Positions 13,333 to 46,659 of a DNA stretch of 64,000 nucleotides are shown piece after piece; positions within the stretch are counted from its first letter, which is position 1, and each line of letters begins with the position of its first letter. Origin of the DNA: Actinomycetota bacterium (GTDB lineage: Bacteria; Actinomycetota; Acidimicrobiia; Spongiisociales; UBA11373); the NCBI GenBank assembly GCA_043810615.1, contig JBDROA010000007.1, positions 1,390 to 65,389 of the forward strand, read 5' to 3'. The notes below the pieces were generated by a model. That model ran no database searches. It saw only the letters and a program-made list of their open reading frames with translations, and was not told where the DNA came from. A program made the translations under genes and the position numbers.

Positions 13333-13350
13333 CCGCAGCCTGGGGTGGGG
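13333..13350 (-). repeat. copy (inverted orientation) of the short dispersed repeat CCCCACCC(T/C)GGGCTGCGG
   Basis: ccgcagcctggggtgggg read directly. About 200 bp from a direct-orientation copy at 13548-13565, so the two form an inverted pair. Confidence 0.55.
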
Positions 13351-13547
13351 TCTACAAGTGTCACCCTTGCTCGGATCGACTTCTCCCCCGCCCCAGCGGG
13401 GGAGATGCCCGAAGGGCAGAGGGGGCAGCCTCCCACCAAGGCCTCGCCACATGCTGCCCCCACCCTTGCCCTCCCCCACCGCCGTGGGGGAGGGAGCAAC
13501 ACCCTGGGGCGCTGCTCACGAAGAACACCATTCAGGGCGTGTTCTCG

Positions 13548-13565
13548 CCCCACCCTGGGGTGCGG
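13548..13565 (+). repeat. copy of the short dispersed repeat
   Basis: ccccaccctggggtgcgg followed by tgtgacattgttatc. Confidence 0.55.
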
Positions 13566-13682
13566 TGTGACATTGTTATCAGAAGACAACCGGCACAAAG
13601 GCGGCCAACCCCCAACCGCAGCCCAAGCAGGAAAAGGTCACCGGTGCCCCGGCTGAGACAGCAGCGACCCGGCACAAGGCCC

Positions 13683-17237: not shown

Positions 17238-18668
17238 CTAGGGCGTCCGCTGCGCCGCAATCGCGTCGATCCCTCGCGCAAGGGCAGCCTCGTTCAGCGC
17301 GATCAGATCGCCCTTCGACCGCAGCGCTCCCCTGATAGCGGTCAGAAACGAAGCCGGAGGGAACAGGCTTGTGGCTGCTTGAAGAGCACCGAGGGCGACG
17401 ATGTTCTTGACCATCTTGCTGCCGATCTCTCCAGAGACCGCGGTCATAGGGACCCCGTAGGCGCGCACTCCCTCAGCGAGATCGGGAACCTCGCCGATGA
17501 CCGTGCTGTCGTACACGATCGTGCCGCCGGCCTGCACCGCGGGTCCGAATTTGCGGAGGCTCGGCCCGTTGAAGGCCACCAGTATGTGGGGTGCGGGAGC
17601 TGCAGGAGAGAGCACCTCGTGCTCGGCGATGTGGACGTCGGCGTACGAGGTTCCCCCACGCGATTCCGGCCCATAGCTGGGAATGTGGGTCGAGTCGAAC
17701 CCCTCGTTGATGGCGGCCCGGGCCAGGAGAAGGGCAGCGGTTTGGGCCCCATCGCCGCCAGCCCCGGCCAGTTTCAGGGCGATGTCATCATGGGCAATGT
17801 GGGCCGGGAACCCGCTTGCGAAGCGGGGCGGCGCCTCGGCATGGCTTTCGATCTGGTCGAGCAGTGCCGCCGCCTCGAAGTTGGGTGGATTCACATCGGG
17901 CCAGGGCTCCCTGTCGCCGAGGTCCTTCTTCACTCCGAGCGGGAAGACGGGCAGCATCCGCTCGCGGACCCAAGCCTCGGCCTCCGTCGGATCGACGTGC
18001 CACTGCACCGGACACTCCGAAAGCACTTCGACCAGTGCGAAGCCTCGCTTCTCCACCTGCATCTGAAGGGCCTTGCGGATGGCGTGCCTGGCGCGGTTGC
18101 GGCGTTGGTTGTCGAACAGCGCCACACGCTCCACGTACACCGGCCCATCCAGAGCGGCGAACAACTCGGCCACCTTCATCGGTTCCCCCATGAAGCGAGG
18201 GCGCCCCTCAGGGGTGGTGGACGTCTCCTGACCCAGCAGAGTCGTCGGTGCCAACTGGCCACCGGTCATGGCGTAGATGCCGTTGTTGACGAAGATCACC
18301 GAGATGGGGATGCCCATCTGCGCGGCATAGATGATCTCGGCCAGTCCGATCGACGCCAGATCGCCGTCTCCCTGATACGACACCACGACTGCATCGGGGT
18401 TGGCCACCTTGTGACCCAGCGCCACGGCGGGCGCCCTGCCGTGAGCCGCCTGGGTGTTCCCCACATCCAGGTAGTAGTAAAGGAACACACTGCACCCCAC
18501 CGGGGAAATGGCAACGGTGCGGTCCTGCACCCCCAGTTCCTCGATGGCCTCGGCCAGGTACTTGTGCACCAGGCCGTGGCCGCATCCGGGGCAGTAGTGA
18601 GTGCTGTGGGCCTTGAGGCCCTCGGCGTGGGCATGCCGCTCGAAGGTCTCGTAGAGGACGCCGCTCAC
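17238..18668 (-). CDS. 2-oxoacid:ferredoxin oxidoreductase, fused beta (TPP-binding) and gamma subunit
   Basis: 476 aa. The N-terminal half reads ...HYCPGCGHG...GDGDLASIG...NNGIYAMTGGQ (TPP/Fe-S beta subunit). The C-terminal half has the gamma-subunit fold (...LLARAAINEGFDSTHIPSYGPESRGG...). Confidence 0.9.
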   Translation of the reverse strand: MSGVLYETFERHAHAEGLKAHSTHYCPGCGHGLVHKYLAEAIEELGVQDRTVAISPVGCSVFLYYYLDVGNTQAAHGRAPAVALGHKVANPDAVVVSYQGDGDLASIGLAEIIYAAQMGIPISVIFVNNGIYAMTGGQLAPTTLLGQETSTTPEGRPRFMGEPMKVAELFAALDGPVYVERVALFDNQRRNRARHAIRKALQMQVEKRGFALVEVLSECPVQWHVDPTEAEAWVRERMLPVFPLGVKKDLGDREPWPDVNPPNFEAAALLDQIESHAEAPPRFASGFPAHIAHDDIALKLAGAGGDGAQTAALLLARAAINEGFDSTHIPSYGPESRGGTSYADVHIAEHEVLSPAAPAPHILVAFNGPSLRKFGPAVQAGGTIVYDSTVIGEVPDLAEGVRAYGVPMTAVSGEIGSKMVKNIVALGALQAATSLFPPASFLTAIRGALRSKGDLIALNEAALARGIDAIAAQRTP

Positions 18669-20074
18669 ACCACCACCTCCCCTCGAGCGTCTGCCGCCTG
18701 GATGATCTCGGCGGTCTCCGGCAGATTGCCCCCGTAGCGGCGCACGTTGCCGATCGGCGGATGGTCATCGATCCCGGCGTAGCTGAGAGCCAACCGAAGC
18801 TCGTCCTCCAATTGCCCGTCGCTGGCTTCCACGACCACGAGGCGTTGGACGCCTGGCAGGATTCCCCGCAGAGCTTCGATCGGGAACGGCCACAGCGTGA
18901 TTGGGCGGAAGAGCCCGGCCCGAACCCCCCGCTCCCGCAGGACCTGAACGACCCCCTTCACCGTCCGAGAGGGGGTATTCGAGGCGACGTACACCACCTC
19001 GGCGTCGCTGCAGCGAAAGAGGTCCGCCCGCTGCTCGTTTGCGGTCATCCGCCGGTACTTCTCGATCAGCCTCACGTTGAAGGCCTCCTGATCGTCCTCT
19101 TCCAGGCGGATCGAGCTATGCAGGTTCCGTCGATGCATGGCGTCCCCGTACACCGCCCAGGCCGGCAAACCGGGCCTCACCATGTACTCCGGCAGTCGCA
19201 CCTTTCCGCTCACCTGGCCCAGGTAGCCGTCGCCCAGGATGACCACAGGATTCCGGTAGGTGAAGCTCAACTCGAATGCCAGCATCGTCAAGTCCAGCAT
19301 CTCCTGGGGATCTGCCGGCGCCAGCACGATCGCATGCGTATTCCCATGGCCCAGGCCCCGGCACGCCAGCTTGATGTCGTCTTGTGACGGCGCGATGTTC
19401 CCCAATCCCGGACCGGCCCGCATGATGTCGACGAACACCCCCGGCAGCTCGGAGCCGATCATGTACGAGATCCCCTCCACCATCAGGCTGAAGCCGGGTG
19501 ACGAGGTGAACGTCATGCACGCCAAACCCGCACCACCGCATCCATACATGTGGTTGACCGCCGCCACCTCGCTCACCGCCTGCACGAACACCCCATCGAG
19601 GTGCGGCAGGATCTTCGCCATCAACTCGGCGCCCTCGGTCGACGGTGTGATCGGATACCCGAAGAAGTGCCGGCACCCCGCCAACAAGGCCCCGACCGCC
19701 GCCCCGTAAGCCCCCTTGAGCAGCAGCGGTTCCCGTGGGGGCAGTTGGATGCGCTCTCCTGGAATGTCCTTCGGGACCGGGGCCGGAAGTGGCTGCTCGC
19801 CGGGCTCGACTGCGTCTGCGGTCTCCCACCAGAAGTGACGATCGTCACCGTGGAGGGCATAGGGCTCCGGACAGGCCGAAAAACACAATCCGCAGGCGTT
19901 GCAGTCCTGCAGGTCGATGACCACGGGAAGCAATCCGCTCTCGGCGTTCACCGCCGGCGCGAGTGTGATGCAGCCACGGGCGCAGGCCGGCATGCAGCGG
20001 CCGCAGCCCTTGCAGTACTCCGCCGTGAGATGCGGCATCGGCCGCTGCCGGCGGCTCCTACCCTCGCCGCTCAT
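18665..20074 (-). CDS. 2-oxoacid:ferredoxin oxidoreductase, fused delta (2x[4Fe-4S] ferredoxin) and alpha subunit
   Basis: The N-terminus has two Cys clusters (CKGCGRCMPACARGC; CNACGLCFSACPEP). It is followed by an alpha-subunit domain (...AYGAAVGALLAGCRHFFGYPITPSTE...). The stop overlaps the start of the beta-gamma gene. An alternative start lies at ATG 20038. Confidence 0.9.
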   Translation of the reverse strand: MSGEGRSRRQRPMPHLTAEYCKGCGRCMPACARGCITLAPAVNAESGLLPVVIDLQDCNACGLCFSACPEPYALHGDDRHFWWETADAVEPGEQPLPAPVPKDIPGERIQLPPREPLLLKGAYGAAVGALLAGCRHFFGYPITPSTEGAELMAKILPHLDGVFVQAVSEVAAVNHMYGCGGAGLACMTFTSSPGFSLMVEGISYMIGSELPGVFVDIMRAGPGLGNIAPSQDDIKLACRGLGHGNTHAIVLAPADPQEMLDLTMLAFELSFTYRNPVVILGDGYLGQVSGKVRLPEYMVRPGLPAWAVYGDAMHRRNLHSSIRLEEDDQEAFNVRLIEKYRRMTANEQRADLFRCSDAEVVYVASNTPSRTVKGVVQVLRERGVRAGLFRPITLWPFPIEALRGILPGVQRLVVVEASDGQLEDELRLALSYAGIDDHPPIGNVRRYGGNLPETAEIIQAADARGEVVV

Positions 20075-20345
20075 GTCGTGTACCCGAACCCGGGCCCTGG
20101 TCCCCGCACCATGCCAACCCGCCTCCTAGACCGGACTCCCCCATGGGGCCCATGTCCGCCACCAGTCTGCTTGAACCGAGCCAAGCCCCCGGGAAGGATA
20201 GCCCCCGGCCTCCTCGAACTGCCCCTGATGGATCCGGGTTGGGCCACCACGGCGCCCTCGCCGCCCGCCCGCGGATACGGAGTTCGATCATCTGGTCCGA
20301 AACCATGGAAGCCGAGGGGCCGCTCCCGGGCAGGGCCGAAGGTCC

Positions 20346-27156: not shown

Positions 27157-27331
27157 GTCTCCAGGCTATCCGATCGGAAGCGGCCTTGCCGACCCGGCGA
27201 TCCGTCACCGCCGGCGCGCCACCTTTGGATGGGGCCCGAACGAGTCGCGCGTCCGCTCGCCCTGCCGCGGACCGCCGGCCCCAGCGTGATCCCGGAGCGC
27301 GCCGGGTCACCCCCTCTTACACTCCCCCGCG

Positions 27332-28087
27332 GTGAGCAGTTGGGCGCGGCGCTTCATCTACTACCCGGACGACCGGGTGCCTCCCTTCGATCCTCCCGGG
27401 GGTCTGGGGAAAGGCGTCACGGTGCACCCCGCCGACGGTCCCGGCCTGGCGGCCTGGCACCTGCCGGGGGGCGGAGACACCGCCGCCGTGCTGTGCAACG
27501 GCAACGCCGGCAACAGGGCCGACCGCCTCCCGCTGTCGGCCGGCCTGCAGCGCCGCGGCCTCGGGGTGCTCTCCCTGGATTACCGCGGCTACGGCGGCAA
27601 CCCGGGCGAACCGCAGGAGGCGGGCCTGATCGCCGACGCCGACGCCGCCGCCTCCTACCTGGCCGAATCCCCGGGGGTGGCCCACCTGGTCTACTTCGGG
27701 GAGTCGCTGGGGGCGGCGGTGCTCGTCGGCCTGGCCGAGCACCGCCCTCCTGCCGCCCTGGTGTTGCGCTCCCCCTTCACCTCGCTGCTCGACGTCGCCC
27801 GGGCGCACCTGCCCCTGGTCCCCTCGGGGATCATCGACGACCGCTGGGCCTCCCTGGAGCGCATCCGGGGCATCGAGGTTCCCCTCCTCGTCTTGGCCGG
27901 CACCGCCGATCGGGTGGTCCCCTACTCCCACAGCGTCCGACTGTTCGAGGCCGCACCTGGGCCCAAGCGTCTGGTGACCTTCGAGGGCGCCGACCACAAC
28001 GACCCGGCCCTCACCTTCGGGGCCCGACTCCTCGACGAGACCGTGCGCTTCCTCGCCGATGTGATCGGCTTCGCGGGAGTGGCCTGA
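27332..28087 (+). CDS. alpha/beta-fold hydrolase
   Basis: GTG start. ...AAVLCNGNAGN...YFGESLGAAV (GxSxG)...LAGTADRVVPYSH... Confidence 0.85.
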   Translation: MSSWARRFIYYPDDRVPPFDPPGGLGKGVTVHPADGPGLAAWHLPGGGDTAAVLCNGNAGNRADRLPLSAGLQRRGLGVLSLDYRGYGGNPGEPQEAGLIADADAAASYLAESPGVAHLVYFGESLGAAVLVGLAEHRPPAALVLRSPFTSLLDVARAHLPLVPSGIIDDRWASLERIRGIEVPLLVLAGTADRVVPYSHSVRLFEAAPGPKRLVTFEGADHNDPALTFGARLLDETVRFLADVIGFAGVA

Positions 28088-28094
28088 TCCCCTC

Positions 28095-30284
28095 TCAGCG
28101 GCCGAGGCGGTGTGCCGCGTAGGTTCCCAGGGCGCGCATCGCCCGATCGGCGGTGCGGAACACGGGCACCCCTTCGGCCTCCAGCAGCGAAGCCAGGGGG
28201 TCGTAGAGGCATCCGCCGTCCACCACCACCACCCAGGCTTTGGCGGTGGCGCCGAAGAGTCGGGCGAGGCGAGGGCCCACCGACCCGGGGGCGGCGGCAT
28301 CCTCGGGGTGGGCCGGCCCGGCGGCCAGGGTCGCCAGCGCGGGGGTGAGGGGCACGGCGCCCACCAGGCCCAGGTCCACCGCGGGATCAGCCAGAACGGC
28401 CTCCACAGCCGCAGCGAACCCGGTGTCGTCGGTGATCGGGGTCAGGTCGAGGGGGTTGCGCACCCCGACCACCCCCTCCAGGCGGCGCGCCGCCAGCATC
28501 GCGGCCACCGCCCCCTCCGCCACCGGGCCCAGGGTGGGAAAGGCGAAGGTGCCCTGGTGGTCGGCGGCGGCCACGCACTCGAAGCCGGCATTTGACACCG
28601 CACCGAGGCGCAGGCCGGCGATCTCCTTCCCCCGCAGCGTCACGGCGAGGCGCACCAGGTCCTCGAACTCCTCGAACGTGCCGGCCATCAGCACGCCGGC
28701 CTCCCGGGCGAGCGCCCCGGCCAGAGCGTGGTCGGGGGCCAGCGCCGCGGTGTGCGAGGCAGCGGCGGCGGCACCGTCGGAGGTGCGGCCCCCCAGGTAG
28801 AGGATCACCACCCCGCCCCGCTGCCGGATGCGAGCGGCGGCGTCGAGGCAGCGGGCCCCGTCGCCGGGGCGGAACCCCTCGAGGTAGCAGGCGAACACCT
28901 CCACTGCGGGGTCGTCCTGCAGGCAGGAGAGGTAGTCGCCGGCCGTCAGGTCGGCCTGGTTGCCCAGGGTCACCAAGTAGCGCGGCCGCAGGTGGGCAAG
29001 CCGATCGAGGCGGGCAATGGCGAAAGCCCCGCTCTGGGAGAGCACCGCCAGGGGCGCGGTCGGAGCCCCGGGCCGGGGGCTGGACTTGAAGCCGGGGATG
29101 AAAGTGGCGTCGTAGCCGCCGGGCACGGAGCGCACCCCCATGGAGTTGCCCCCGTTCACCACCGGCCCGTCGCCGCGGCGGCGCCCGGCGGCCACCGCGG
29201 CCGCCAGGCGCCCGGCCAGCGCCTCGCTCCCCTCCCGCTCGCCGAGGCCACCGGGGATCAGGATCACCGCCCCCGCCGCCCCCCTAGCCACCACCTCCTC
29301 CAGCGCCTGGGGTGCAGCTTCGGCGGCGAGGCTCAGCACGAGCAGGTCCACCCGCTCCGCCAGGGCCGCCACATCGGGCACGGCCCGGCAGCCCTCGACC
29401 TCCGCCACCCCCGGCTTCACCACGGTCACCGCCGCCGCCGGGAAACCCTCGCTCAGGATGTTGTGCAGGATGATCCGCCCCGGGTTCATCCGCTCCGACA
29501 CCCCGGCGACCGCTATGGAGCGCGGGTGCAACAGACGGTCCAACTGCGCCGGCGGGCGCGGCGAGGCCGCTTCCGGAAGAGCGCCCCGGCGAGCCAGGGC
29601 GTCGAGCGCCACGGGGCCTCGAGCGGTGAAGACCATCGGGTTGACCTCGACGTCTATCACGTCGGGGGGCAGTCCGGGAAGGGCCTCCGCCACCCGCTCC
29701 AGGACGGCCTCGAGCGCCGCGATTTCCACGGCAGGAGCACCGCCTCGCAACCCTCCGGTGAGGGCCGCCACGGCCGGCGAGCCCGCCGGAAGGCCGGCCG
29801 CCCCGGGCCCGATCCGGAGCACGACGGGAGGGAACCCCCGGGCCAGCCACTCGGCGTGGAGTCCGCCGAGGCCGAGGACCAGCACGGGCCCGAACTCGGC
29901 GGTGCGGCGCACCCCGAGCAGCAACTCCCCGCCGGGCCGGGCATCGTGCGGGACAAACTCCGCCACCAGCCAGCCCCGCACCTCCTCCCCGGTGAACCCC
30001 GGGGCCATCCCTGCGATGGCCGCCGCCACCGCCCCTGCCTTCCGGGGGACCACCCGAACCCCGCCGCGATCGGTCTTGTGGGCCACTGCCGGGGCCAGCA
30101 CCTTGACCACCACCCGCTCGCCGGGGAGGCCGTCGAGGGGGGGCACCGCTCCGCCGGGCGCCACCACCAGGTGAGCGGGGAGGCCGATCCCCAGCGCCGC
30201 CGCCAGGGCGTAGGCCTCGGTCTCCAGCAGTGCCTCCCGGCCCTCGGTCCGGGCCGGGGCAAGCAGGTCCTCCAGGCGGCTCAT
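28095..30284 (-). CDS. NDP-forming acyl-CoA synthetase (acetyl-CoA synthetase [ADP-forming]-type, fused subunits)
   Basis: ATG 30284 overlaps the IorB stop (ATGA). N-terminal ATP-grasp-like segment, then CoA-binding (...IAVAGVSERMNPGRI...) and succinyl-CoA-synthetase-like ligase-CoA regions. 729 aa. Confidence 0.85.
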   Translation of the reverse strand: MSRLEDLLAPARTEGREALLETEAYALAAALGIGLPAHLVVAPGGAVPPLDGLPGERVVVKVLAPAVAHKTDRGGVRVVPRKAGAVAAAIAGMAPGFTGEEVRGWLVAEFVPHDARPGGELLLGVRRTAEFGPVLVLGLGGLHAEWLARGFPPVVLRIGPGAAGLPAGSPAVAALTGGLRGGAPAVEIAALEAVLERVAEALPGLPPDVIDVEVNPMVFTARGPVALDALARRGALPEAASPRPPAQLDRLLHPRSIAVAGVSERMNPGRIILHNILSEGFPAAAVTVVKPGVAEVEGCRAVPDVAALAERVDLLVLSLAAEAAPQALEEVVARGAAGAVILIPGGLGEREGSEALAGRLAAAVAAGRRRGDGPVVNGGNSMGVRSVPGGYDATFIPGFKSSPRPGAPTAPLAVLSQSGAFAIARLDRLAHLRPRYLVTLGNQADLTAGDYLSCLQDDPAVEVFACYLEGFRPGDGARCLDAAARIRQRGGVVILYLGGRTSDGAAAAASHTAALAPDHALAGALAREAGVLMAGTFEEFEDLVRLAVTLRGKEIAGLRLGAVSNAGFECVAAADHQGTFAFPTLGPVAEGAVAAMLAARRLEGVVGVRNPLDLTPITDDTGFAAAVEAVLADPAVDLGLVGAVPLTPALATLAAGPAHPEDAAAPGSVGPRLARLFGATAKAWVVVVDGGCLYDPLASLLEAEGVPVFRTADRAMRALGTYAAHRLGR

Positions 30285-30859
30285 GGCCGGGTCACCGCCT
30301 CCCGGCCCAGGGCGAAGGCGCGCCGGTTCGCCTCGACCACCCGCCTCCCCTTGGCAGCGAAGCCCTCCACGATGCAACTCTCGATGACCTCACCCGGGAC
30401 GGGGAGGAACGCCGAGGCCGCCCCCACCATCACAACGTTGGCGGTGCGTCGGGAGCCGGCGCGCCGTGCCAGCTCCCCCGCTTCCACCAGCACCGCCCCC
30501 GGCACGGCGCGCACCGCCGCCAGCACCGCCTCCACCGCCGGGTAGTCGGGCACGTTCTCGTAGGGATCGGCGGCGGTGACCAGGCGGCCACCAGGAGCGA
30601 GATAGTCGAGGTAGCGCAGCGCCTCCACGGGCTCCACTCCCAGCACCATGTCTGCACCGCCCCGCGGCACCAGGTCGCCCTCGATGGGGACGTCGGCGAG
30701 GCGCAGGGAGGCCTGCACCGCCCCGCCGCGCTGCGACATGCCGTGCACCTCTCCCTGACGCACCACCAGGCCGTGGCGCCGGGCCGCCTCGGCGAGGATG
30801 GCCGCCACCGACAGCACCCCCTGCCCGCCCACCCCGGCGAGGATCAGGTCGTGCTTCAC
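30281..30859 (-). CDS. iorB: indolepyruvate:ferredoxin oxidoreductase beta subunit
   Basis: GTG 30859 overlaps the IorA stop (GTGA). VKHDLILAGVGGQGVLSVAAILAEAARRHGL...; 192 aa. The ORF-track extension to 32626 is junk overlapping iorA. Confidence 0.85.
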   Translation of the reverse strand: MKHDLILAGVGGQGVLSVAAILAEAARRHGLVVRQGEVHGMSQRGGAVQASLRLADVPIEGDLVPRGGADMVLGVEPVEALRYLDYLAPGGRLVTAADPYENVPDYPAVEAVLAAVRAVPGAVLVEAGELARRAGSRRTANVVMVGAASAFLPVPGEVIESCIVEGFAAKGRRVVEANRRAFALGREAVTRP

Positions 30860-32469
30860 GTCTTCTCCGCTTCGCGCCGCTCCACCTTGGCCAACTCCAC
30901 GCACGGCCGCACCGCCACGATCACCGACAGCCCCGGGTGCACCAGTTCGGCCCGCAGCAGCGCCGCCAGCGCTGCGGGGCGGCGCGCCGCCACCTCCACC
31001 ACATGAAGGTGCCCGGGGTCCACGCCGAGGCCCCGGAGCAGCGGCTCCAGTCGGGAGCCGGGGAGCACGGTGGGCTGGAGGCCGGTCATGGCCACCGTTC
31101 CGTTGTCCAGGATCAGCAGGGTCATCGGGGTGCCGGCGGCGACCGCGTCCATGAGCGGGGTGACCCCGGAGTGGAGGAAAGTGCTGTCGCCGATGACGGC
31201 CAGCACGGGGCGCAGCCCGGCGTCGGCCGCCCCCTTGGCCATGCCCACCGAGGCGCCCATGCACACACAGGAATCGATGGCCGAGTACGGGGGCAGCGCC
31301 CCCAGGGTGTAGCAGCCGATGTCGGAGGTGACCACCGACTCGGGGAAAGCGGTGAGGGCTTCCCGCACCGCTTCGTACGAATCGGCGTGGGGGCAGCCCT
31401 TGCAAAGCTGCGGGGGCCGCCCGGGCAGAGGCAGGGCCGAGGGAGCCAGATGGGGCCGGGCCGGCAGGCCCAGGGCGGCCCGCACCAGATCGGGGGTGAG
31501 CTCGCCGTCGAGAGGAAGCGCCCCCGACTCCTTGCCCAGCACCTCCCAGCCGTGGGGCAGCACGCCCCGCACCTGCCGCTCCAGGAAGGGGTAGCCCTCC
31601 TCGATTACCAGGAGGCGAGGGACGCCCTCGGCGAGCCGGCGGATGGCCTCCAGCGGGGCCGGGTACATGCCCACGTGGAGCGTGGGCGGCCGCAAACCCG
31701 CTTCTCCGGCCTCGGCGGCGAAGTAGTGGCGGGCGATGCCGGAGGTGAGCACGGCGAAGGGGGCGCCGGCCTCTCCGGGGGCGAAAGCGTTGTGTCCTGA
31801 GGCCGCCGCCGCCGCCCGGATGGCCGGCAGCCGGTCGAGGAGGTGCCGCCAGAGGCGCCGGGCGTTGTGCGGCAGCAAGGTCCAATCCTGGGGGGCCGCC
31901 GCCCTGGCCATGGGGCTCTGGCCCCGCGGCGGCCGGGGGGCCACCACCGCCCGGCTGTGGCAGAGGCGAGTGACAAGGCGCACCACCACCGGCACCCCGA
32001 AGCGCTCCGAGAGGTCGAAGGCCTCCCGCGTCATGTCGTAGGCCTCCTGCTGGTCGGCGGGCTCCAGGCAGGGGACCCGGGCGAAGTCGGCCAGGACCCG
32101 GGTGTCCTGCTCGTTCTGCGACGAGTGCATGCCGGGGTCGTCGGCCACCGCCACCACCAGGCCGCCGCCCAGGGCCACCAGCGCCGAGTTCACAAAGGGG
32201 TCCATGGCCACGTTGAGCCCGACGTGCTTCATGGCCACCAGGGCCCGGCGACCCAGCATCGACACGCCAAGCGCCTGCTCGTAGGCGGTCTTCTCGTTGG
32301 CGCACCAGTGGGCGGTGAAGCCCCCGGGGCCGGCCCTCGGTACGAGGTACTCGAGGATCTCGGTGGAGGGCGTGCCCGGATAGGCGTAGGCGCCGCTCAC
32401 CCCGGCGTGCAGCGCGCCGAGGGCCACCGCCTCGTCCCCGAGCAGCATCAGAGCGCCGGCTTGGTCCAT
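30856..32469 (-). CDS. iorA: indolepyruvate:ferredoxin oxidoreductase alpha subunit
   Basis: MDQAGALMLLGDEAVALGALHAGVSGAYAYPGTPSTEILEY...; TPP-binding ...GDSTFLHSG...; Cys motif CKGCPH. 537 aa. Confidence 0.9.
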   Translation of the reverse strand: MDQAGALMLLGDEAVALGALHAGVSGAYAYPGTPSTEILEYLVPRAGPGGFTAHWCANEKTAYEQALGVSMLGRRALVAMKHVGLNVAMDPFVNSALVALGGGLVVAVADDPGMHSSQNEQDTRVLADFARVPCLEPADQQEAYDMTREAFDLSERFGVPVVVRLVTRLCHSRAVVAPRPPRGQSPMARAAAPQDWTLLPHNARRLWRHLLDRLPAIRAAAAASGHNAFAPGEAGAPFAVLTSGIARHYFAAEAGEAGLRPPTLHVGMYPAPLEAIRRLAEGVPRLLVIEEGYPFLERQVRGVLPHGWEVLGKESGALPLDGELTPDLVRAALGLPARPHLAPSALPLPGRPPQLCKGCPHADSYEAVREALTAFPESVVTSDIGCYTLGALPPYSAIDSCVCMGASVGMAKGAADAGLRPVLAVIGDSTFLHSGVTPLMDAVAAGTPMTLLILDNGTVAMTGLQPTVLPGSRLEPLLRGLGVDPGHLHVVEVAARRPAALAALLRAELVHPGLSVIVAVRPCVELAKVERREAEKT

Positions 32470-32610
32470 GCCGGCCCCACCGTACTGCGCCGCCGCGCCG
32501 GGGCGCAGCGGCCGGATGGCCCGGCCCCGTCCCGGGACCGGGGACGGAGTGCCCTACCCCCTCCGGCGAATCCCGGCCATCATGGGGTCCAAGAAGGCGC
32601 AGGAGGCTCA

Positions 32611-34290
32611 GTGGCGGACCGGACATTCCTATTGCTTGGCGGAGCCGGCATGGTCGGCTTCGAGGTGGCCCATCAGGTGGCCAACTCGCTCTGCCCGGAG
32701 CGAGTGGTGATCACCTCGCTGCCCGAGGACGGCATGGTTCGGGCCGTGGAGCGCCTCCGCGGGCTCGTCCCCCCAGATGTGGAGATCGTCGGCGAGTGGG
32801 GCGACCTGTTCGTGCGCGAGGAGTTCACCCGGCGCGACCGGCGGTTGCTCCTCGACGACCCGGCCTGCCGGGAGGCCATCTTCGCCGACCTGCTCGGCCC
32901 CCTCGACGCCGCCTACGAGCGCTCGCGACTCGCCCACCTCATCGCCACCCATCGCCCCGACGTGGTGATCGACGCCATCAACACCGCCACCGCCATCTCC
33001 TACCAGGACGTCTACACCACCGCCATCCTGGCCCAACGCGATCTCGAGAACCTGGTGGCCGGCCACGAGGTGGCGCCGGAGCAGCTGGCCCGCAACGCGG
33101 AGACTCTCATCCTGTCCCAGTCGATGTCGCAACTGGTGCGCCACGTGATGATCCTCGACCGCGCCCTCGCCGAAGCGGGCACCCGCCTCTACCTCAAGAT
33201 CGGCACCACCGGCACCGGGGGCATGGGCCTGAACATCCCCTACACCCACAGTGAGGATCGCCCTTCGGCCAAGCTGCTGACCAAGACCGCCGTGGCCTTC
33301 GCCCACACCGGGCTGCTCTTCCTGATGGCGCGCTCGCCCGGCCGGCCGGTGGTGAAGGAGATCAAACCCGGCGCACTCGTCGGCTACTCAGACATCGCAC
33401 ATCGCACCATCCAGGAGATGGGCCACCCGGTGTCGCTCTACGCCGCCCGGGCCGAGGCCCTCGGGGAGCGCCTGCACCTCCGCCTCGACCCCGCGGGGTT
33501 CGCCCGGCAAGCCGAGCTACGCCTCCCCGTGGTGGATACCGGGGAGAACGGGGTCTTCACCAAAGGGGAGTTCGAGGCCATCACCGCCATGGGACAAATG
33601 GAGTTCGTCACCCCCGAGGAGATCGCCGGCCTCTGCGTGCAAGAGATCGTCGGGCGCAACACCGGGCGCGACGTCATATCCGCCCTCGATGCCGCCGTGC
33701 TGGGCCCCTCGTACCGGGCCGGGGTGCTGCGCTCCCGGGTCCTCGAAGGACTGCGCTCCCTCGAAGACCGCACGGGCACCCACAGCGTCGCCCTCGGCCA
33801 GCTCGGCCCCCCCGAGCTCTCCAAGCTGCTCTGGGAGGCGGAGCTCCTCGCCCTCGCCGGCGGCACCCTCACCGCCGTATTGGCAACCACCCCGGAGGCT
33901 TTGAGCGCCGCGGCGGCGGACGTGCTCGAGGAGCGGCCCGGGCTGCGCGACACGATCACCTCCCTGGGCCTGCCCATCCTCGATCCCGACGGGGGAGGCC
34001 TGTGGCGCGGTCCCTTCCTCCGCATCCCCGAGGTGGCCGGGGAAGTCGAGGTGGCGGTGGGCCCCGAAGACCGCGACCGCTGGGCCTCCAAGGGGTGGGT
34101 GGACCTGCGCCCGGCCAACTTCGCCCGCTGGCAGGAGAGGCTGGCGGCCATGGCGGCGGCGCACCCCGGCTCCGCCATGCCCGGGTCGGCCGGGGCCGCT
34201 CCCGAGACCTCCCTCTCGAACCACATCGAGATCGGGACCGTGGTGGCCTGGGTGCTTTCCGGCGAGTTGGGCGGGTACCGGATCAAGTAG
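32611..34290 (+). CDS. NAD(P)-binding Rossmann-fold protein of unknown function (saccharopine-dehydrogenase-like N-terminus)
   Basis: GTG 32611 with AGGAGG 4 nt upstream. VADRTFLLLGGAGMVGFEVAHQVAN... 559 aa. The ORF-track start at 31843 is junk antisense to iorA. Confidence 0.6.
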   Translation: MADRTFLLLGGAGMVGFEVAHQVANSLCPERVVITSLPEDGMVRAVERLRGLVPPDVEIVGEWGDLFVREEFTRRDRRLLLDDPACREAIFADLLGPLDAAYERSRLAHLIATHRPDVVIDAINTATAISYQDVYTTAILAQRDLENLVAGHEVAPEQLARNAETLILSQSMSQLVRHVMILDRALAEAGTRLYLKIGTTGTGGMGLNIPYTHSEDRPSAKLLTKTAVAFAHTGLLFLMARSPGRPVVKEIKPGALVGYSDIAHRTIQEMGHPVSLYAARAEALGERLHLRLDPAGFARQAELRLPVVDTGENGVFTKGEFEAITAMGQMEFVTPEEIAGLCVQEIVGRNTGRDVISALDAAVLGPSYRAGVLRSRVLEGLRSLEDRTGTHSVALGQLGPPELSKLLWEAELLALAGGTLTAVLATTPEALSAAAADVLEERPGLRDTITSLGLPILDPDGGGLWRGPFLRIPEVAGEVEVAVGPEDRDRWASKGWVDLRPANFARWQERLAAMAAAHPGSAMPGSAGAAPETSLSNHIEIGTVVAWVLSGELGGYRIK

Positions 34291-35149
34291 GCAGGGCGGG
34301 CCCGCCCCGGCCCCACCCGGCGGCGTGGCACAGGTGCTTGGCGGCGTCGAACTCCGCATGCGCCAGGAGGGCATCCAGATCCTCGACGGCGAGGAAAGGA
34401 CCGTAGCTGCGGAATGAGGTGCCGACGGGGATGGTGAGCGTGCCGTCGGGGAACACCATCACGTAGAGACGATCCAGGGTCTCGTGGCTCAGCCAGTTGA
34501 TGTGGACGGCGTGGGGCCCGGCCTCAACGGTGAGGCGCAGGGCGGCGAACTCCGCCGCCGAGACGACGAGGTCGTCCCAGTGGACCCCGGGGTCCATGGA
34601 GCGCGGGAAAGCCTGGAAGACGTTGTAGAAGAGCCGATTCGGCTGGACTGCGGCCCGCCCGTCGAGCAGGCCGACGATGCCCGGGACGTCGGCCAGGTTG
34701 TGCCGGGTCACCGGAGTGGCCACCTTGATGTCGATGCCCGGATACGCTGCGAGCAGATCGAGTGCGGCCAGCACCGCAGCGAAGTGACCCTCCTTCTTGG
34801 TGCGGGCCGACACCTCCTCCGAGGCTCCGTCGAGGGGCAGGGAGATCAAGTCGATCTCCGCGCCGTGCTCGGCGAGGAAGGCAGCGGTGAGCCGGTCCCC
34901 GGTGGTGGAGACCGCCACCTCGAGCCCGAAGTCCCGGGCGTGACGGATCAGCTCGCCAAGATCCTCGCGCTGCAGCGGGTCGCCGCCGGTGAACACGATG
35001 CGGCGGGCGCCGGCGGCGGTGATGTGCTCGACGATGGCCCGGGCGGTGGCGGTGTCAACCCCGGCCACCTCCTGAGGCCCCCAGCAGTAGGGGCACTCCT
35101 GGCTGCACTCCGAAGTGACGTGGAAGTCGATGGTGGCGACCCGAGGCAC
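34283..35149 (-). CDS. radical SAM protein
   Basis: CxxxCxxC cluster (CSQECPYC) near the N-terminus and a GGDPL (GGE-type) SAM motif. 288 aa. No obvious SPASM Cys cluster. Confidence 0.85.
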   Translation of the reverse strand: MPRVATIDFHVTSECSQECPYCWGPQEVAGVDTATARAIVEHITAAGARRIVFTGGDPLQREDLGELIRHARDFGLEVAVSTTGDRLTAAFLAEHGAEIDLISLPLDGASEEVSARTKKEGHFAAVLAALDLLAAYPGIDIKVATPVTRHNLADVPGIVGLLDGRAAVQPNRLFYNVFQAFPRSMDPGVHWDDLVVSAAEFAALRLTVEAGPHAVHINWLSHETLDRLYVMVFPDGTLTIPVGTSFRSYGPFLAVEDLDALLAHAEFDAAKHLCHAAGWGRGGPALPT

Positions 35150-35221
35150 GCCTCCCCTCCGCTGGCTCGACCGGATTGTACGGCGCGTCTCCCTCCGGCC
35201 CCGGCCCGGTACCGGCCGCCG

Positions 35222-36361
35222 CTACAGGGGCAAGCCCAGGCCGCGGCCGATCACCAGGCGCTGGATCTCACTGGTTCCCTCCCCGATCTCCAGCACCTTG
35301 GCGTCCCGGTAGAACCGCGACACGGGGGTCTCGTCCACGTAGCCGTAGCCCCCGAAGATCTGGGTGGCATGGCGAGTGGCGTCGACGGCGATCTCGGAGG
35401 CGTAGAGCTTGGCCATAGCCGCTTCCTGGCGGAAGGGACGGCCCTGGTCCCGCAGCCAGGCGGCCCGGTAGGTAAGGAGGCGGGCGGCCTCCACCGCCAC
35501 CGCCATGTCGGCGCAGCGGAAAGCCACCCCCTGGTTGGCCCCGATGGGCCGGCCGAACGCCTGCCTCTCCTTGGCATAGCCGACGCTCTGTTCCAGGCAG
35601 CCCTGGGCCAGGCCCACCGCCATGGCGGCAATGGCCACCCGACCGTCGTCGAGGATCGCCAGGAACTGGCGAAAGCCGCGCCCCCGCTCGCCCAGCAGGT
35701 TCCCCGCCGGCACCCGGCACTCCTCGAAGCGCAGGCCGTGGGTGTCCGAGGCGTGCCAGCCCATCTTGCGATAGGCCGGTTCCACCACGAAGCCGGGCGT
35801 CCCCGCCGGGACGATGATGGCCGAGATCTCGGCCGGCCCGGTGCGGGCGGTGACCGTCACCAGCGAGGTGATGGAGGTGCCGGAGTTGGTGATGAACACC
35901 TTCTCCCCGTTGATCACCCACTCGTCCCCGTCCAGCTCCGCCCGGGTGCGGGTGGCCCCGGCGTCGGAGCCGGCCTCCGGTTCGGTGAGCCCAAAGGCAC
36001 CCAGGGCCCGGCCCGCCACCAGGTCGGGGAGCCACTGCGCCCTCTGCTCCTCGCTCCCGAAACGGCAGATGGGGCTGGCCCCCAGCGACACCCCGGCCTC
36101 CAGAGTGATCGCCAGCGAGGCGTCCACCCGGGCCACCTCCTCGATGGCGAGGCACAGGGTCAGCAGGCCGGCGTCGGACCCCCCATACTCCTCCGGGAAG
36201 GGCAGCCCGAAGAGGCCCAGGTCGCCCATCTTCCGCACCACATCGAGGGGGAAGTGATGGTCCCGGTCCCACTCGGCGGCGTGGGGGGCGATCTCGGCTT
36301 CGGCGAACTCCCGTACCACCTTGCGGAAAGCCACGAGCTCCGGGGACGGGTCGAAGTCCAC
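35222..36361 (-). CDS. acyl-CoA dehydrogenase
   Basis: 379 aa. ...GAFGLTEPEAGSDAGATRT...FITNSG...QIFGGYGY... are classic ACAD blocks. Confidence 0.9.
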   Translation of the reverse strand: MDFDPSPELVAFRKVVREFAEAEIAPHAAEWDRDHHFPLDVVRKMGDLGLFGLPFPEEYGGSDAGLLTLCLAIEEVARVDASLAITLEAGVSLGASPICRFGSEEQRAQWLPDLVAGRALGAFGLTEPEAGSDAGATRTRAELDGDEWVINGEKVFITNSGTSITSLVTVTARTGPAEISAIIVPAGTPGFVVEPAYRKMGWHASDTHGLRFEECRVPAGNLLGERGRGFRQFLAILDDGRVAIAAMAVGLAQGCLEQSVGYAKERQAFGRPIGANQGVAFRCADMAVAVEAARLLTYRAAWLRDQGRPFRQEAAMAKLYASEIAVDATRHATQIFGGYGYVDETPVSRFYRDAKVLEIGEGTSEIQRLVIGRGLGLPL

Positions 36362-36392
36362 TGCTACCTCCCGTGTGAAGACGACGGCGAAC

Positions 36393-37205
36393 TCAACGCA
36401 GCAGGCGCTCCCCCATGGCCCGGAAGTAGGCGGCGCCGAGGAGCTGGGCGATGCCGACGAGTGCCACGGCGGAGGCCATCACCACCAGGCCGTTGCGGTA
36501 CAGCGTCCCGTCGGTGATGGTGGTCACCATGTCCCTTCCCTCGCCGCTCACCAGGGTCGCGGCCCCGATGACGGCGGCGCCGGCGACGCCGGTCACCGCG
36601 GCGGCGAGGCTCAGCACCCACCAGGCCACGCCGGTGCCGATGAGAGGCTGCCTCCGCCAGCGATCGGCCACGGGCGCTGGCCCGTTGTCGGGATGGGCGA
36701 TGCGCTCGATCTCGGAGAACACCAGCCGGGGGATCAGCACGTTGCCCAGCGGGATGAACCAGCCTCCCACCGCCCAACCCGACGACCAGGAGCGGCCTTC
36801 GGCCCCGGTGCGACCCAGGCTGCGGTAGGCCTGGCTGCCCCATACGAGGAGGAGGATGAAGAGCACGAGGCCGGCCAGACCCAGGATCCCGGCGGCCCCG
36901 GCCCACAGGTCCGAGGCGTCCTCCCAGGCCGAAAACTCATCGGCGTCGAAACCGAGCGGGGCGGTCCACCAGGCGTGCATCCTCGGGATGGCGTTGGCCA
37001 GGGCCACCACCGCCAGGCCGGCGACGCCGGCGGTGAGGTAGAGGAACACCCGCACCGCCGTATGCAAGCCGGGGCTGAGGCGGGTCTGCGGCACAGCCTC
37101 CCAGGGCGGTGCCGGCGGCGCCGGTGGCGCCGGGCGCGACTCGGGCGGGTACCACTTGCCGTCGGACGCCAGCCACCATCCTTCGCCTTGCGGCCGGTCG
37201 CTCAT
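36393..37205 (-). CDS. DUF2510/DUF4328-type membrane protein
   Basis: N-terminus GWWLASDGKWYPP (DUF2510-like), Pro-rich linker, then a four-TM domain. Confidence 0.7.
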   Translation of the reverse strand: MSDRPQGEGWWLASDGKWYPPESRPAPPAPPAPPWEAVPQTRLSPGLHTAVRVFLYLTAGVAGLAVVALANAIPRMHAWWTAPLGFDADEFSAWEDASDLWAGAAGILGLAGLVLFILLLVWGSQAYRSLGRTGAEGRSWSSGWAVGGWFIPLGNVLIPRLVFSEIERIAHPDNGPAPVADRWRRQPLIGTGVAWWVLSLAAAVTGVAGAAVIGAATLVSGEGRDMVTTITDGTLYRNGLVVMASAVALVGIAQLLGAAYFRAMGERLLR

Positions 37206-43907: not shown

Positions 43908-44708
43908 TCACCCGCTTCTGCTCTCCGATGTCCATACTTCCCCAAACCTCCTCGCCTCATCCGTAAGGTACTCCACTGCGCACACCGGCAGGCCGGGACG
44001 GCCGGCGCGCACCCCGCCGGCCCTCTGGGCTTCCTCCCACCCGAGCCCCGGAGCGAACAGCCGGGCAATCCATTTCGGGTCGGATCGGCACACCAAGGCA
44101 CCGTCCCGCATCAGGGCCACCGCCGGCACCTCGGCCCGCTGCGCCCGGTAGCCGTGCTCGTGCTCGATCACCTTGCCGCTGAGGGCTACCAGGCCGTAGA
44201 TGATGCCGGGCCACGCTCCCGGCCGGGCCCCCCAGAGCGCCCCGGCGTCCTTGAAGGCATAGATGCCGCAGCGACAACACGGGGCGTCGTGCGGCGCCCC
44301 CGGCCCGCGGGGGCAGCGGGCCTCCAGTCGCGGCTCTTCCCAGACCTGCACCACGCCGCGCACGCCCAGCGAGGTGAGCCGCCACATGCGGAACCCCAGA
44401 ATGGGCGCCGGCGACCAGAACGCCCCCGCCGACCGCCCCCCGGCGGAGCGCGCCGGGTCCGGGGCCGGCGGCTCCACCGTCGTCTGCGCCCGCACCTGCT
44501 CCAGTTCCAGGATCTGCCGGCGAAGCGCCTCGGCCCCCTTCTGGCTCAGCACACGCGAGAGGGCCCTCCACCCCCGCTCGACCGCCGACGGCAGGGGCTC
44601 GCCCCATGTCACGCCGGGCAACGGCCCCTCGAGCCCGGAGGGCTCACCCCCTCCCGGGCCACTGTGGAACCACCCACCCGGAGGCCGCGGACCAGCCCCC
44701 GGCATCAT
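43908..44708 (-). CDS. uncharacterised protein with a coiled-coil N-terminus and a conserved Cys/His-rich C-terminal domain (gene C of the operon)
   Basis: ATG-ATG at 44708/44705 with GGGGAGG 4 nt upstream. It overlaps the TGA of the upstream gene (ATGA). The C-terminal domain reads FWSPAPILGFRMW...EARC...HDAPCCRCGIYAFK...LSGKVIEHEHGYRAQRA. A clear paralog lies at 51847..52905. Confidence 0.65.
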   Translation of the reverse strand: MMPGAGPRPPGGWFHSGPGGGEPSGLEGPLPGVTWGEPLPSAVERGWRALSRVLSQKGAEALRRQILELEQVRAQTTVEPPAPDPARSAGGRSAGAFWSPAPILGFRMWRLTSLGVRGVVQVWEEPRLEARCPRGPGAPHDAPCCRCGIYAFKDAGALWGARPGAWPGIIYGLVALSGKVIEHEHGYRAQRAEVPAVALMRDGALVCRSDPKWIARLFAPGLGWEEAQRAGGVRAGRPGLPVCAVEYLTDEARRFGEVWTSESRSG

Positions 44709-45700
44709 CGGGCCTCCCCGAACCACGACCGCCGCCCGCCCGCCTGCTGCCCTTCTGAGGGCATCCCTGCCCCGGCCGCCTCGGGGGCCCACAGCGCCGC
44801 CAGGTGCACCAGGGAGGAACCGACGACCAGGGCCGACACCACAGCGCCGGGGGCGGTGAGGAACACCACCTCGCCCAGGCCAACGGCGGCATGGGTGCTG
44901 GCCACCCCTCCCGATAGCGCCGCCACCCGGGCCACCCCCTCAGCGGCGAGGCCACCGCCCGGCCCGCCGAGCCCCACCCGGGCGTCGGCGGCATAGGAAC
45001 CCACCAGGCCCCGCCATAGGAACGCCAGCGTGTCGGGGCGGTCGAACACGTCGAGCGCCAGCGGCCGCGCCCCCACCAGGGCAAGCACGCCGCGTTGGCC
45101 GGCGGCCGGCCGCAGCGGCACGGTGATCTCGTCGATGGCCCCGGCCCGCCGGCGGTGCACCTCGGAGTACAAAGCCGTCGAGGAGTCCACCTCGTGCAGG
45201 CTGAGGTGGCGATCGACCGCGCCCCAGACCTCCCCCTGGTGGGAGCGGTACCCGACACCCCGGCGGGCCTCGTGCTGCACCCCGATGTTCTTGGCTGCCC
45301 TGACCCGGGGGGAGGCGTGGAGGTCCTCGCGCGCCATGGGCCGGGCAGCCCCCCAGCGGCCGGCCTCGACGCACGAGACCGGGATGGTCAGCGTGGCCTG
45401 GGCCGGCACCAGGACCGTGGTGTTCAGCGTGCGGGTCTGCCTGAGCCCGCCTAGCACCTCCCCTTCCAGGAGCAGCACCGGTCGGCCGGCGTGGTTGACG
45501 ACCTGCAGTTCGGGCACCGAGCCACCCCCCACTTCCTCGACCAGCACGACGCCTTCCGCCACCGCCCCGGCAAACAGCCGGTACGGAACGGCCTCACCGT
45601 CGTGGAAGACCGGCACCATGGTGAGCGGGCCCGACTGCTGCGGCTCGCCGAAGCGCAGGCCGCTCCCGAGCATCGTGGTTACGGTGTCGCCTGCCGTCAT
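44705..45700 (-). CDS. conserved hypothetical protein (gene B; resembles the database family ARPP-1/DUF6569, tentative)
   Basis: 331 aa. ...MVPVFHDGEAVPYRLFAGAVAEGVVLVEEVGGGSVPELQVVNHAGRPVLLLEGEVLGGLRQTRTLNTTVLVPAQATLTIPVSCVEAGRW... Its start overlaps the stop of gene A (ATGA at 45697-45700). Confidence 0.7.
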   Translation of the reverse strand: MTAGDTVTTMLGSGLRFGEPQQSGPLTMVPVFHDGEAVPYRLFAGAVAEGVVLVEEVGGGSVPELQVVNHAGRPVLLLEGEVLGGLRQTRTLNTTVLVPAQATLTIPVSCVEAGRWGAARPMAREDLHASPRVRAAKNIGVQHEARRGVGYRSHQGEVWGAVDRHLSLHEVDSSTALYSEVHRRRAGAIDEITVPLRPAAGQRGVLALVGARPLALDVFDRPDTLAFLWRGLVGSYAADARVGLGGPGGGLAAEGVARVAALSGGVASTHAAVGLGEVVFLTAPGAVVSALVVGSSLVHLAALWAPEAAGAGMPSEGQQAGGRRSWFGEAR

Positions 45701-46659
45701 TGGCCCTCCTTGGCACCACTGTCGCGCTCGCCTGTGACAGATCCGGCCGGCGCCGGCGGCGTACCGGTTGCCTGCCGCTCACGCCTCCGCCGTTCCGACT
45801 CCTCCACCGCCCGGCGCTTCTTCTCGCTCACCACGTTGGCGAACAGGCGGGCCGATGAAGACGCCGCCTCCACCTCCCCCAGGGTGAGATCGGCGGCCTG
45901 GGCAGAGGTCACCCGGTCCCAGGCGACACCCTTCTCGGCGGCATAGGCAGCGGCCGGCTGGCGGTGGCGGCGGGTACGGGTCTCGGCCCTCTGCAGGTAG
46001 TAGTGGGAGATCATGTGGAAGACCTCGCCGTTGCCGGCACGGAAGGTGAGGGCTACCGGCGCCTCACCCCAGCGCTCCTGCAGTTCCCGGCTCGAGATGA
46101 GCACCTTCACCCGGCCGGAGTCGAGCACCGTGATGGGGTACGAAGAGCCCTCGAGCCACCAGATCGGGTCGTCCGCCCCCTCCATGACGCCCCTGAGGAA
46201 CGGGTTGTCGTGTGCGGCCGCTTCGATTCGCACCACGGCGTCGCCAGTGGGCCGCTGGTTGAAGGCCACCACGCCGGGGAAGGCCGGTTCGACCACGTGG
46301 CGCAGCGCCCAGTCGGTGGTGAACAGGCTGCCGCCGGCCTCCACGAAGCGTCGCACCGCGTCCACGGCGGCGGCACCCACCTGCCCCGGGCAGTTGACCA
46401 CCAGCAGTTGCTCGGGCCGCAGTTCGAGGCCGGCCAGGTGATAGGGGTCCACCGCCAGGTGGGGCAGGTCCAGGGCCTCAAGGACCCACTCGACGTGGTC
46501 GTACTGCCCGCGCACCACCACGATATCCGACCCCTTCACCTGCTCGAGGATCTCGTGGATCCCCGGCGCTTCGCGAGCGATGGCATCGCGCGTGTGACGG
46601 CCTCCCACCTGGTAGGCCCTGCGGCGGCGATCCTCACGGCTGCTGTCGGTTCCGGTCAA
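45697..46659 (-). CDS. conserved hypothetical protein (gene A; possible class-I-amidotransferase/ThuA-like fold, tentative)
   Basis: TTG 46659 with GAGGAG 8 nt upstream. (M)TGTDSSREDRRRRAYQVGG...GSDIVVVRGQYDHVEWV...LLVVNCPGQVGAAAVDAVRRFVEAGGSLFTTDWALRH... The ORF-track start at 46812 falls in an AT-rich non-coding region. Confidence 0.6.
   Translation of the reverse strand: MTGTDSSREDRRRRAYQVGGRHTRDAIAREAPGIHEILEQVKGSDIVVVRGQYDHVEWVLEALDLPHLAVDPYHLAGLELRPEQLLVVNCPGQVGAAAVDAVRRFVEAGGSLFTTDWALRHVVEPAFPGVVAFNQRPTGDAVVRIEAAAHDNPFLRGVMEGADDPIWWLEGSSYPITVLDSGRVKVLISSRELQERWGEAPVALTFRAGNGEVFHMISHYYLQRAETRTRRHRQPAAAYAAEKGVAWDRVTSAQAADLTLGEVEAASSSARLFANVVSEKKRRAVEESERRRRERQATGTPPAPAGSVTGERDSGAKEGQ

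Follow-up and report, generated by a model that had tools for sequence, protein, structure and literature searches.

Organization of the iorA-iorB-acd locus

The stretch of DNA analysed here (64,000 nucleotides of contig JBDROA010000007.1, hereafter the window) derives from the metagenome-assembled genome (MAG) of an uncultured Actinomycetota bacterium and has a G+C content of 72%. Between positions 28095 and 32469 it carries, on the minus strand, three closely packed genes for the two subunits of a 2-oxoacid:ferredoxin oxidoreductase (OFOR) of the indolepyruvate:ferredoxin oxidoreductase (IOR) family and for an NDP-forming acyl-CoA synthetase. The first of these, iorA (30856..32469), starts with ATG and encodes the α subunit of 537 amino acids; the second, iorB (30281..30859), starts with GTG and encodes the β subunit of 192 amino acids, the counterpart of OFOR domain III; and the third, acd (28095..30284), starts with ATG and encodes a fused synthetase of 729 amino acids. 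The iorA/iorB junction reads gacGTGAagc, with the GTG of iorB overlapping the TGA of iorA by four bases, and the iorB/acd junction reads ccATGAgcc, where the ATG of acd shares four bases with the TGA of iorB in the same manner; these overlaps leave no room for signals inside the putative operon. An earlier note on this DNA had described the three genes and both overlaps, and its description is upheld by the coordinates, by the hidden Markov model (HMM) and Pfam matches reported below and by the database entries for two of the proteins.

The three reading frames are true genes and not chance open reading frames (ORFs). The translations of iorB and acd are 100% identical to MFH1329148.1 (named 'indolepyruvate oxidoreductase subunit beta' by NCBI) and MFH1329147.1 ('acetate--CoA ligase family protein'), respectively, so that their starts agree with those called by the Prokaryotic Genome Annotation Pipeline (PGAP), and the G+C content at third codon positions (GC3) of the three genes (0.90-0.92) is typical for the genes of the window. 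The start of iorA is slightly uncertain: translation could begin at the ATG at 32469 (537 amino acids) or at that at 32448 (530 amino acids), homologues of either length exist, and no database entry matches the 537-residue protein exactly. Related loci, when aligned, keep both the ATG at 32469 and the GGTGGGG preceding it.

IorA lacks the C-terminal ferredoxin domain

The α subunit is made up of the Pfam domains POR_N and TPP_enzyme_C (the latter named for thiamine pyrophosphate, TPP) and no others. It matches the IOR α-subunit model TIGR03336 (IOR_alpha) with 468.5 bits (E 2.8e-140) over model positions 4-539 of 595, a score that lies below the curated cut-off of 650.9 bits. The match stops at position 539 because the protein ends there, and the roughly 56 C-terminal model positions that are missing explain at least part of this shortfall. 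The next-best family reaches 103 bits, leaving IOR_alpha ahead by more than 360 bits. The earlier note had considered that the enzyme might instead group with pyruvate-specific pyruvate:ferredoxin oxidoreductases (PFORs), which the scores do not bear out: the archaeal PorA model (PorA_Arch) gives only 17 bits, and the PFOR model TIGR02176 is absent from the NCBIfam matches of IorA.

What the earlier note had missed is that IorA is devoid of the C-terminal intramolecular 2x[4Fe-4S] ferredoxin domain (domain V). The protein has no Fer4 match in Pfam and contains nine cysteines in total, none of them arranged in a CxxCxxCxxxC motif. Among its best 120 homologues (of at least 8000), four of these cysteines, Cys356, Cys359, Cys386 and Cys523, are invariant, as is the TPP/Mg motif G427-D428...N456, and the motif CxxCxxCxxxCP occurs in none of them. 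The four cysteines (C-x2-C...C...C) are the ligands of one proximal [4Fe-4S] cluster.

The absence of the domain goes with the length of the protein. When IorA relatives were drawn as representatives from a library of proteins clustered at 50% identity, a C-terminal CxxCxxCxxxC-type motif was present in 67 of the 73 proteins of 566-700 amino acids and in one of the 21 of 500-565 amino acids. A rough neighbour-joining tree groups the window IorA with 14 representatives in a clade of 15 tips, all of which are free of the motif. This short, single-cluster clade spans proteins of approximately 520-550 amino acids, and the window IorA shares only about 38-48% identity with the longer IorAs. A further architecture, unlike both the short and the ~600-residue IorAs, is seen in P0288, P0289, P0291, P0293 and others, which are about 1100-1150 amino acids long, have an IorA-like N-terminal portion of ~540 residues and carry CxxCxxCxxxC at the extreme C-terminus.

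The β subunit matches Pfam POR (E 2e-34) and scores 253.4 bits (E 1.5e-75) against the NF005324 equivalog, above its cut-off of 222. The Pfam domains of the two proteins thus correspond to the two-subunit IorAB layout, in which the α subunit combines POR_N with a TPP-binding domain and the β subunit is a POR/gamma-type domain.

The synthetase is a β-α fusion

Three Pfam domains, all scoring above their cut-offs, cover much of the acd product: ATP-grasp_5 (residues 11-229), CoA_binding_2 (255-358) and Succ_CoA_lig (411-546). The protein is therefore a β-α fusion, with an N-terminal ATP-grasp domain followed by CoA-binding and flavodoxin-like ligase domains, an order that the earlier note did not remark on. 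Residues 248-722 match TIGR02717 (E 4.4e-54). The best match in the PDB is 9y43, the 3-hydroxypropionate-CoA ligase [ADP-forming] of Nitrosopumilus maritimus (152 bits, collinear from 21-576 to 21-566), followed by a 4-hydroxybutyrate-CoA ligase and then by the α and β subunits of ACD1. With 9y43 the protein shares the β-α order over ~555 collinear residues and both histidine motifs: His69 (HKTD) and His511 (SHTA) align with the HKTD and SHTG motifs of the solved enzyme, and both histidines are invariant across 117 sequences. The two proteins are nonetheless distant (the 152 bits stand beside a cut-off of 1300 for NF045492, which is far off), and the archaeal enzyme belongs to another context, CO2 fixation, where it works in the ligase direction.

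These matches assign the protein, as judged from its sequence, to the NDP-forming acyl-CoA synthetase superfamily. Grouping with succinyl-CoA synthetases, the other outcome envisaged in the earlier note, was not observed: the matches are to NDP-forming acyl-CoA synthetase models only, and neither SucC nor SucD appears among the NCBIfam matches at E<=0.01 or among the PDB matches. The case for an aryl-CoA specificity like that of acyl-CoA synthetase II (ACS II) is argued from a single line of evidence, the linkage of the gene to iorA and iorB.

The three genes form a conserved unit in several phyla

The order iorA-iorB-acd recurs in 15 further loci from Acidimicrobiia, Eisenbacteria, Planctomycetota and unclassified contigs. 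A search with acd as the query, limited to one genome per species, returned 11 loci, the closest of which belong to three Acidimicrobiia MAGs (70-77% identity) and the others to Eisenbacteria, Planctomycetota, Gemmatimonadota and unclassified MAGs. In nine of the 11, iorA and iorB lie directly upstream of acd in the same order; of the remaining two, one ends at a contig edge and one, from Gemmatimonadota, has other genes upstream. With IorA as the query, which removes the seeding bias of the acd search, iorA-iorB-acd with the same three-domain synthetase was found in all five long metagenomic contigs examined. One more locus (L018), reached through the divergent neighbour gene described below, again contains the module and is the sixteenth example when the window is counted. 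The spacing is tight everywhere, from overlaps of 4-16 bases (as called) to gaps of ~25 bases at most.

Outside Acidimicrobiia the flanks are unrelated, which identifies the three genes themselves as the conserved unit. No flanking partner (aminotransferase, ferredoxin or transporter) is kept across phyla, and the gene clusters present in more than four loci correspond either to the module or to shadow ORFs. The window and three other Acidimicrobiia MAGs have about 15 kb of gene order around the module in common, and the GC3 and codon usage of iorA, iorB and acd fall within the spread of the other window genes. The earlier note had proposed to look for horizontal transfer; composition and synteny together leave a recent archaeal transfer without support.

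The short type of IorA is abundant, with at least 8000 proteins at E<=1e-10; the best 120 of these are 522-578 amino acids long and contain no domains besides POR_N and TPP_enzyme_C. The Joint Genome Institute (JGI) or NCBI already lists many as IorA. The named representatives of the short clade come from MAGs of Planctomycetota, Deltaproteobacteria and Zixibacteria, together with one labelled 'archaeon' (48% identity), and include no cultured organism. The closest named homologues are all from bacterial MAGs (Actinobacteria/Acidimicrobiia, Acidobacteria, Vicinamibacterales and Planctomycetota), and a 95%-identical IorA is encoded on contig Sed_Bac_MAG_29_c_Acidimicrobiia, whose name suggests a sediment MAG. 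The earlier note had regarded the chemistry as not routine for aerobic Actinobacteria. This distribution contradicts that view: bacterial metagenomes contain the module widely, and it has already been annotated automatically.

A divergent neighbour and a conserved block in the intergenic spacer

Upstream of iorA, a spacer of 141 bp (32470..32610), presumed to hold the promoter/operator, separates it from a divergently oriented gene on the plus strand (32611..34290) that encodes a 559-residue protein of NAD(P)-binding type with an N-terminal GGAGMVG motif, listed by NCBI as the hypothetical protein ABIJ48_00610. This neighbour, also overlooked in the earlier note, has a precomputed match to PF27054 (Beta_methylindole_red_C), as do all of its best 120 homologues, and its family is large in metagenomes (6942 matches at E<=1e-5). 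The protein has no match in NCBIfam, in the PDB sequences or in a Pfam set lacking PF27054. In its AlphaFold2 model (predicted local distance difference test, pLDDT, of 78), the N-terminal half resembles short-chain dehydrogenases/reductases (SDRs) and finds in the PDB only generic SDR Rossmann folds with low template-modelling (TM) scores, and the C-terminal half matched no solved fold in the same search.

The gene divergently adjoins iorA in the window and in loci L001-L003, L013, L017 and L018, all of them Actinomycetota-like; it is not beside the module in other phyla, and in two more distant loci (L019 and L020) it stands apart from it. We take the name of PF27054 to refer to β-methylindole-3-pyruvate reductase, which is Ind2 in the indolmycin pathway. 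As a ketoreductase, Ind2 depends on NADH and has 3-methylindolepyruvate as its substrate (PMC8246080). The neighbour may be an accessory gene whose family name hints at the arylpyruvate node; were it to reduce arylpyruvates, arylpyruvate would be a metabolite shared with IorAB and the aromatic assignment would be strengthened.

Other genes are found around this neighbour and its relatives. In locus L019, the lone PF27054 gene lies near an NfnAB-like pair (Fer4_20/Pyr_redox_2 and DHODB_Fe-S_bind; the features are at 2072-4392 and 11489-13689) and also near a β-γ-fused oxidoreductase resembling a second such enzyme of the window, described below. In the window, a gene pair for an acyl-CoA dehydrogenase and, directly after it, a radical SAM protein (34283-36478, minus strand) converges on the PF27054 gene. 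The best match of the dehydrogenase is the acryloyl-CoA reductase AcrC, at 407 bits and below the cut-off; L001 and L003 have both genes next to the module, L002 the dehydrogenase alone.

An alignment of seven related loci contains one invariant block in the spacer, TAGGGCACTCnGTCCC (minus strand, 32556..32540), which in these loci precedes the iorA ATG by ~85-130 nt. We tested the block as part of a structured leader RNA and discarded this reading: the term for covariation was positive (+1.51), the z-score of the single-sequence fold was -1.2, and the whole-window scan against Rfam gave no match. A scan for promoter and terminator consensus sequences returned nothing, the sigma-70 consensus being absent from the spacer, a result that is uninformative at 75% GC. 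Given the lack of a covariation or folding signal, the block is more likely a promoter/operator than an RNA element. At the other end of the module, an α/β-hydrolase gene (27290-28087, plus strand) converges on acd, with 7 bp between the two stop codons, and marks the downstream border of the putative operon.

Host context and other genes of the window

The source MAG is uncultured; the genomes most closely related to it are Acidimicrobiia MAGs, including one labelled sediment. The approximately 50 candidate ORFs of the window that were scanned include no recognizable terminal-oxidase or respiratory-chain domain, so the aerobic lifestyle assumed in the earlier note has no sign in its favour there; the hints that these ORFs do provide are ambiguous and comprise FeoB, a peroxiredoxin, a radical SAM protein, a class I fumarase and a second ferredoxin-dependent oxidoreductase.

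This second 2-oxoacid:ferredoxin oxidoreductase has an unusual two-gene layout on the minus strand (17238-20125), in a region where the local G+C content is lower (0.655 at 18-20 kb). In its α subunit, POR_N and PFOR_II are preceded by a fused dicluster ferredoxin domain at the N-terminus, and the other subunit is a β-γ fusion (TPP_enzyme_C, POR). The earlier note had recognized the enzyme and called it KOR-type; its presence stands, but the label does not, as the α subunit scores 388 bits against the VorB-like model NF005507 (cut-off 399) and 178 against the 2-oxoglutarate synthase α model. Two additional genes on the minus strand bear no apparent relation to the operon: one at 44705-45778 encodes a protein with an ARPP-1 domain (E 1.5e-67), and one at 48140-49216 has a match to Pfam 'Porin PorA' (E 1.2e-46).

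Discussion

We propose that iorA, iorB and acd constitute a self-contained catabolic operon of three genes, in which IorAB would oxidise 2-oxoacids, likeliest arylpyruvates, to acyl-CoA, and the synthetase would then make the free acid and ATP, a reading to which we assign a probability of about 0.62. IorAB would catalyse the TPP-dependent oxidative decarboxylation of a 2-oxoacid with CoA to acyl-CoA, its most probable substrates being the arylpyruvates that arise when Trp, Phe and Tyr are transaminated. Because IorA is without domain V, electrons would leave the single proximal [4Fe-4S] cluster straight to a separately encoded ferredoxin. The synthetase would convert acyl-CoA, ADP (or GDP) and phosphate to the free acid, CoA and ATP by substrate-level phosphorylation, with phosphoryl transfer presumably passing through its two conserved histidines as phosphohistidines. 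This sequence of reactions, from 2-oxoacid to acyl-CoA to acid and ATP, was also that of the earlier note, and the protein families are compatible with it.

The archaeal precedent cited in that note is real. In Pyrococcus furiosus, the gene for the α subunit of ACS2 (PF0532) lies in an operon with the IOR genes; growth on peptides induces this operon, and phenylacetyl-CoA and indoleacetyl-CoA are substrates of ACS2 (PMC3942289). At the level of the operon the correspondence is exact: in Pyrococcus and Thermococcus, as in the window, a two-subunit IOR-family enzyme is encoded beside an NDP-forming acyl-CoA synthetase, and the proposed route likewise leads from arylpyruvate through aryl-CoA to aryl acid and ATP. 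The differences are structural. The archaeal ACS II has separate α and β subunits, with β encoded elsewhere in Pyrococcus, whereas here they form one fused β-α chain, and the window IorA is missing the C-terminal ferredoxin domain that its relatives of 566-700 amino acids carry.

For this last feature, the closest parallel is found in the (ab)2 OFORs of Sulfolobus, where the external ferredoxin has been modelled as docking directly at the single cluster; OFORs without domain V are described in the same study as so far known only from aerobes and as relatively oxygen-tolerant (PMC5020499). StOFOR1/2 of Sulfolobus tokodaii share with the window enzyme the single proximal [4Fe-4S] cluster and the lack of an intramolecular ferredoxin domain V. 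Their a subunit, however, comprises domains III-I-II and their b subunit domain VI, instead of an α subunit of POR_N and TPP-binding domains and a β subunit of domain III, and they belong to a different family with other substrates, archaeal OFOR models scoring weakly or not at all here. Among bacteria, Clostridia oxidise arylpyruvates with an OFOR coupled either to a phosphotransacylase and a kinase or to an acyl-CoA ligase; their IOR- and VOR-cluster oxidoreductases are encoded beside enzymes that conserve the thioester energy as ATP, and IOR-cluster enzymes adjoining PF13607 ADP-forming ligases have been noted in Peptostreptococcales (PMC13285125). These are Firmicutes enzymes, in the characterised route HpdDEFG works together with a phosphate acyltransferase and a kinase, and the assays of that study concerned enzymes other than the module of short IorA and β-α synthetase (PMC13285125). 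IOR and ADP-forming synthetases also feature in genome-based metabolic reconstructions, among them those of 'Ca. Nitrosocaldus islandicus' and of SHF-111, a bacterium of MBNT15 (PMC5817080, PMC9386147).

Several observations weigh against the proposed function. IorA does not reach the IOR_alpha cut-off, and the synthetase stays far below those of all the equivalog models set against it (acetate-, 3-hydroxypropionate- and 4-hydroxybutyrate-CoA ligase), where it reaches 184, 158, 157 and 140 bits and the cut-offs range from 567 to 1300, so that its substrate is not readable from the HMMs. We found no biochemically characterised member of either the short-IorA clade or the acd clade, the named relatives being MAG proteins. 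The closest solved relatives of the synthetase, the 3-hydroxypropionate- and 4-hydroxybutyrate-CoA ligases of Nitrosopumilus, form CoA esters, and ADP-forming synthetases are reversible. No aminotransferase or ferredoxin gene is part of the operon or was found nearby, and a six-frame scan of the 64 kb for CxxCxxCxxxC, a signature of a stand-alone dicluster ferredoxin, was positive only in the second oxidoreductase. Finally, the linkage to IOR is not universal, as the Gemmatimonadota MAG (L008, 4436-8220) encodes a β-α synthetase of 45% identity without iorAB, preceded by a 521-residue ORF with no assigned family.

Some of these same points would be expected if the enzymes worked in the same oxidative, ATP-yielding direction on non-aromatic substrates, such as branched-chain 2-oxoacids, 2-oxobutyrate or 4-methylthio-2-oxobutyrate, with 'IOR' being a family label only. 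The sub-threshold scores of IorA (468 against 651 bits) and of the synthetase, the lack of a characterised member in the clade and the absence of an adjacent aromatic aminotransferase would all agree with such a scenario. Conversely, IorB passes the IorB equivalog model, the shortfall of IorA is due at least partly to the ~56 absent C-terminal positions, the PF27054 neighbour hints, by name only, at indolepyruvate-like substrates, and aliphatic 2-oxoacids could be handled by the separate VorB-like oxidoreductase of the window. On balance, we regard non-aromatic substrates as unlikely.

The direction of the pathway can be questioned as well. In an assimilatory arrangement, the synthetase would activate scavenged arylacetates with ATP, and IorAB would reductively carboxylate the aryl-CoA to arylpyruvate for the synthesis of aromatic amino acids. 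Both reactions are in principle reversible, and the closest solved relatives of the synthetase do act as ligases. The known anabolic roles of IOR, in methanogens and rumen bacteria, nevertheless involve AMP-forming ligases, compared with which an ADP-forming ligase offers little thermodynamic pull, and no partner that generates reduced ferredoxin is linked to the module. In addition, the IOR-ACS2 operon of P. furiosus, being induced by peptides, was assigned a catabolic role by its authors (PMC3942289). We therefore consider the reverse direction quite improbable. More improbable still is that an aerobic actinobacterium recently acquired the module horizontally from (hyper)thermophilic archaea: the chemistry was first described in Thermococcales and one short-clade representative is labelled as an 'archaeon' MAG, but the unremarkable codon usage and GC3 of the three genes, the ~15 kb of flanking order shared with other Acidimicrobiia and the bacterial origin of all the closest named homologues speak against it.

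The three-gene catabolic operon that we favour represents a known type of pathway that is already annotated in public databases, and it does not overturn current knowledge. What is new is modest and consists of an uncharacterised clade of single-cluster IorAs, its strict linkage to a β-α synthetase and a lineage-specific putative reductase as neighbour. A bolder extension, which draws on the comparison with the oxygen-tolerant OFORs and which we judge rather unlikely as a whole, is that the short IorA clade may be a distinct and comparatively oxygen-tolerant arylpyruvate oxidoreductase, hard-wired to the fused synthetase and paired in Acidimicrobiia-like lineages with a PF27054 ketoreductase dependent on NAD(P)H, the two splitting arylpyruvate between an oxidative, ATP-yielding branch and an aryl-lactate branch that consumes NAD(P)H. 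If true, abundant uncultured bacteria of sediments and soils would possess a compact node of Stickland type for their aromatic amino acids.

A large IorA clade without an internal ferredoxin domain, nearly always followed by one and the same kind of fused synthetase, makes the module a compact target for studies of how single-cluster oxidoreductases hand electrons over to ferredoxin and of their oxygen tolerance. If the proposed function is right, this uncultured Acidimicrobiia lineage would gain ATP by substrate-level phosphorylation when it degrades aromatic amino acids, and phenylacetate, indole-3-acetate and similar arylacetates would be released; the same would hold for its relatives in other phyla, among them Eisenbacteria and Planctomycetota, with a bearing on peptide turnover and on the production of auxin-like metabolites in sediments and soils.

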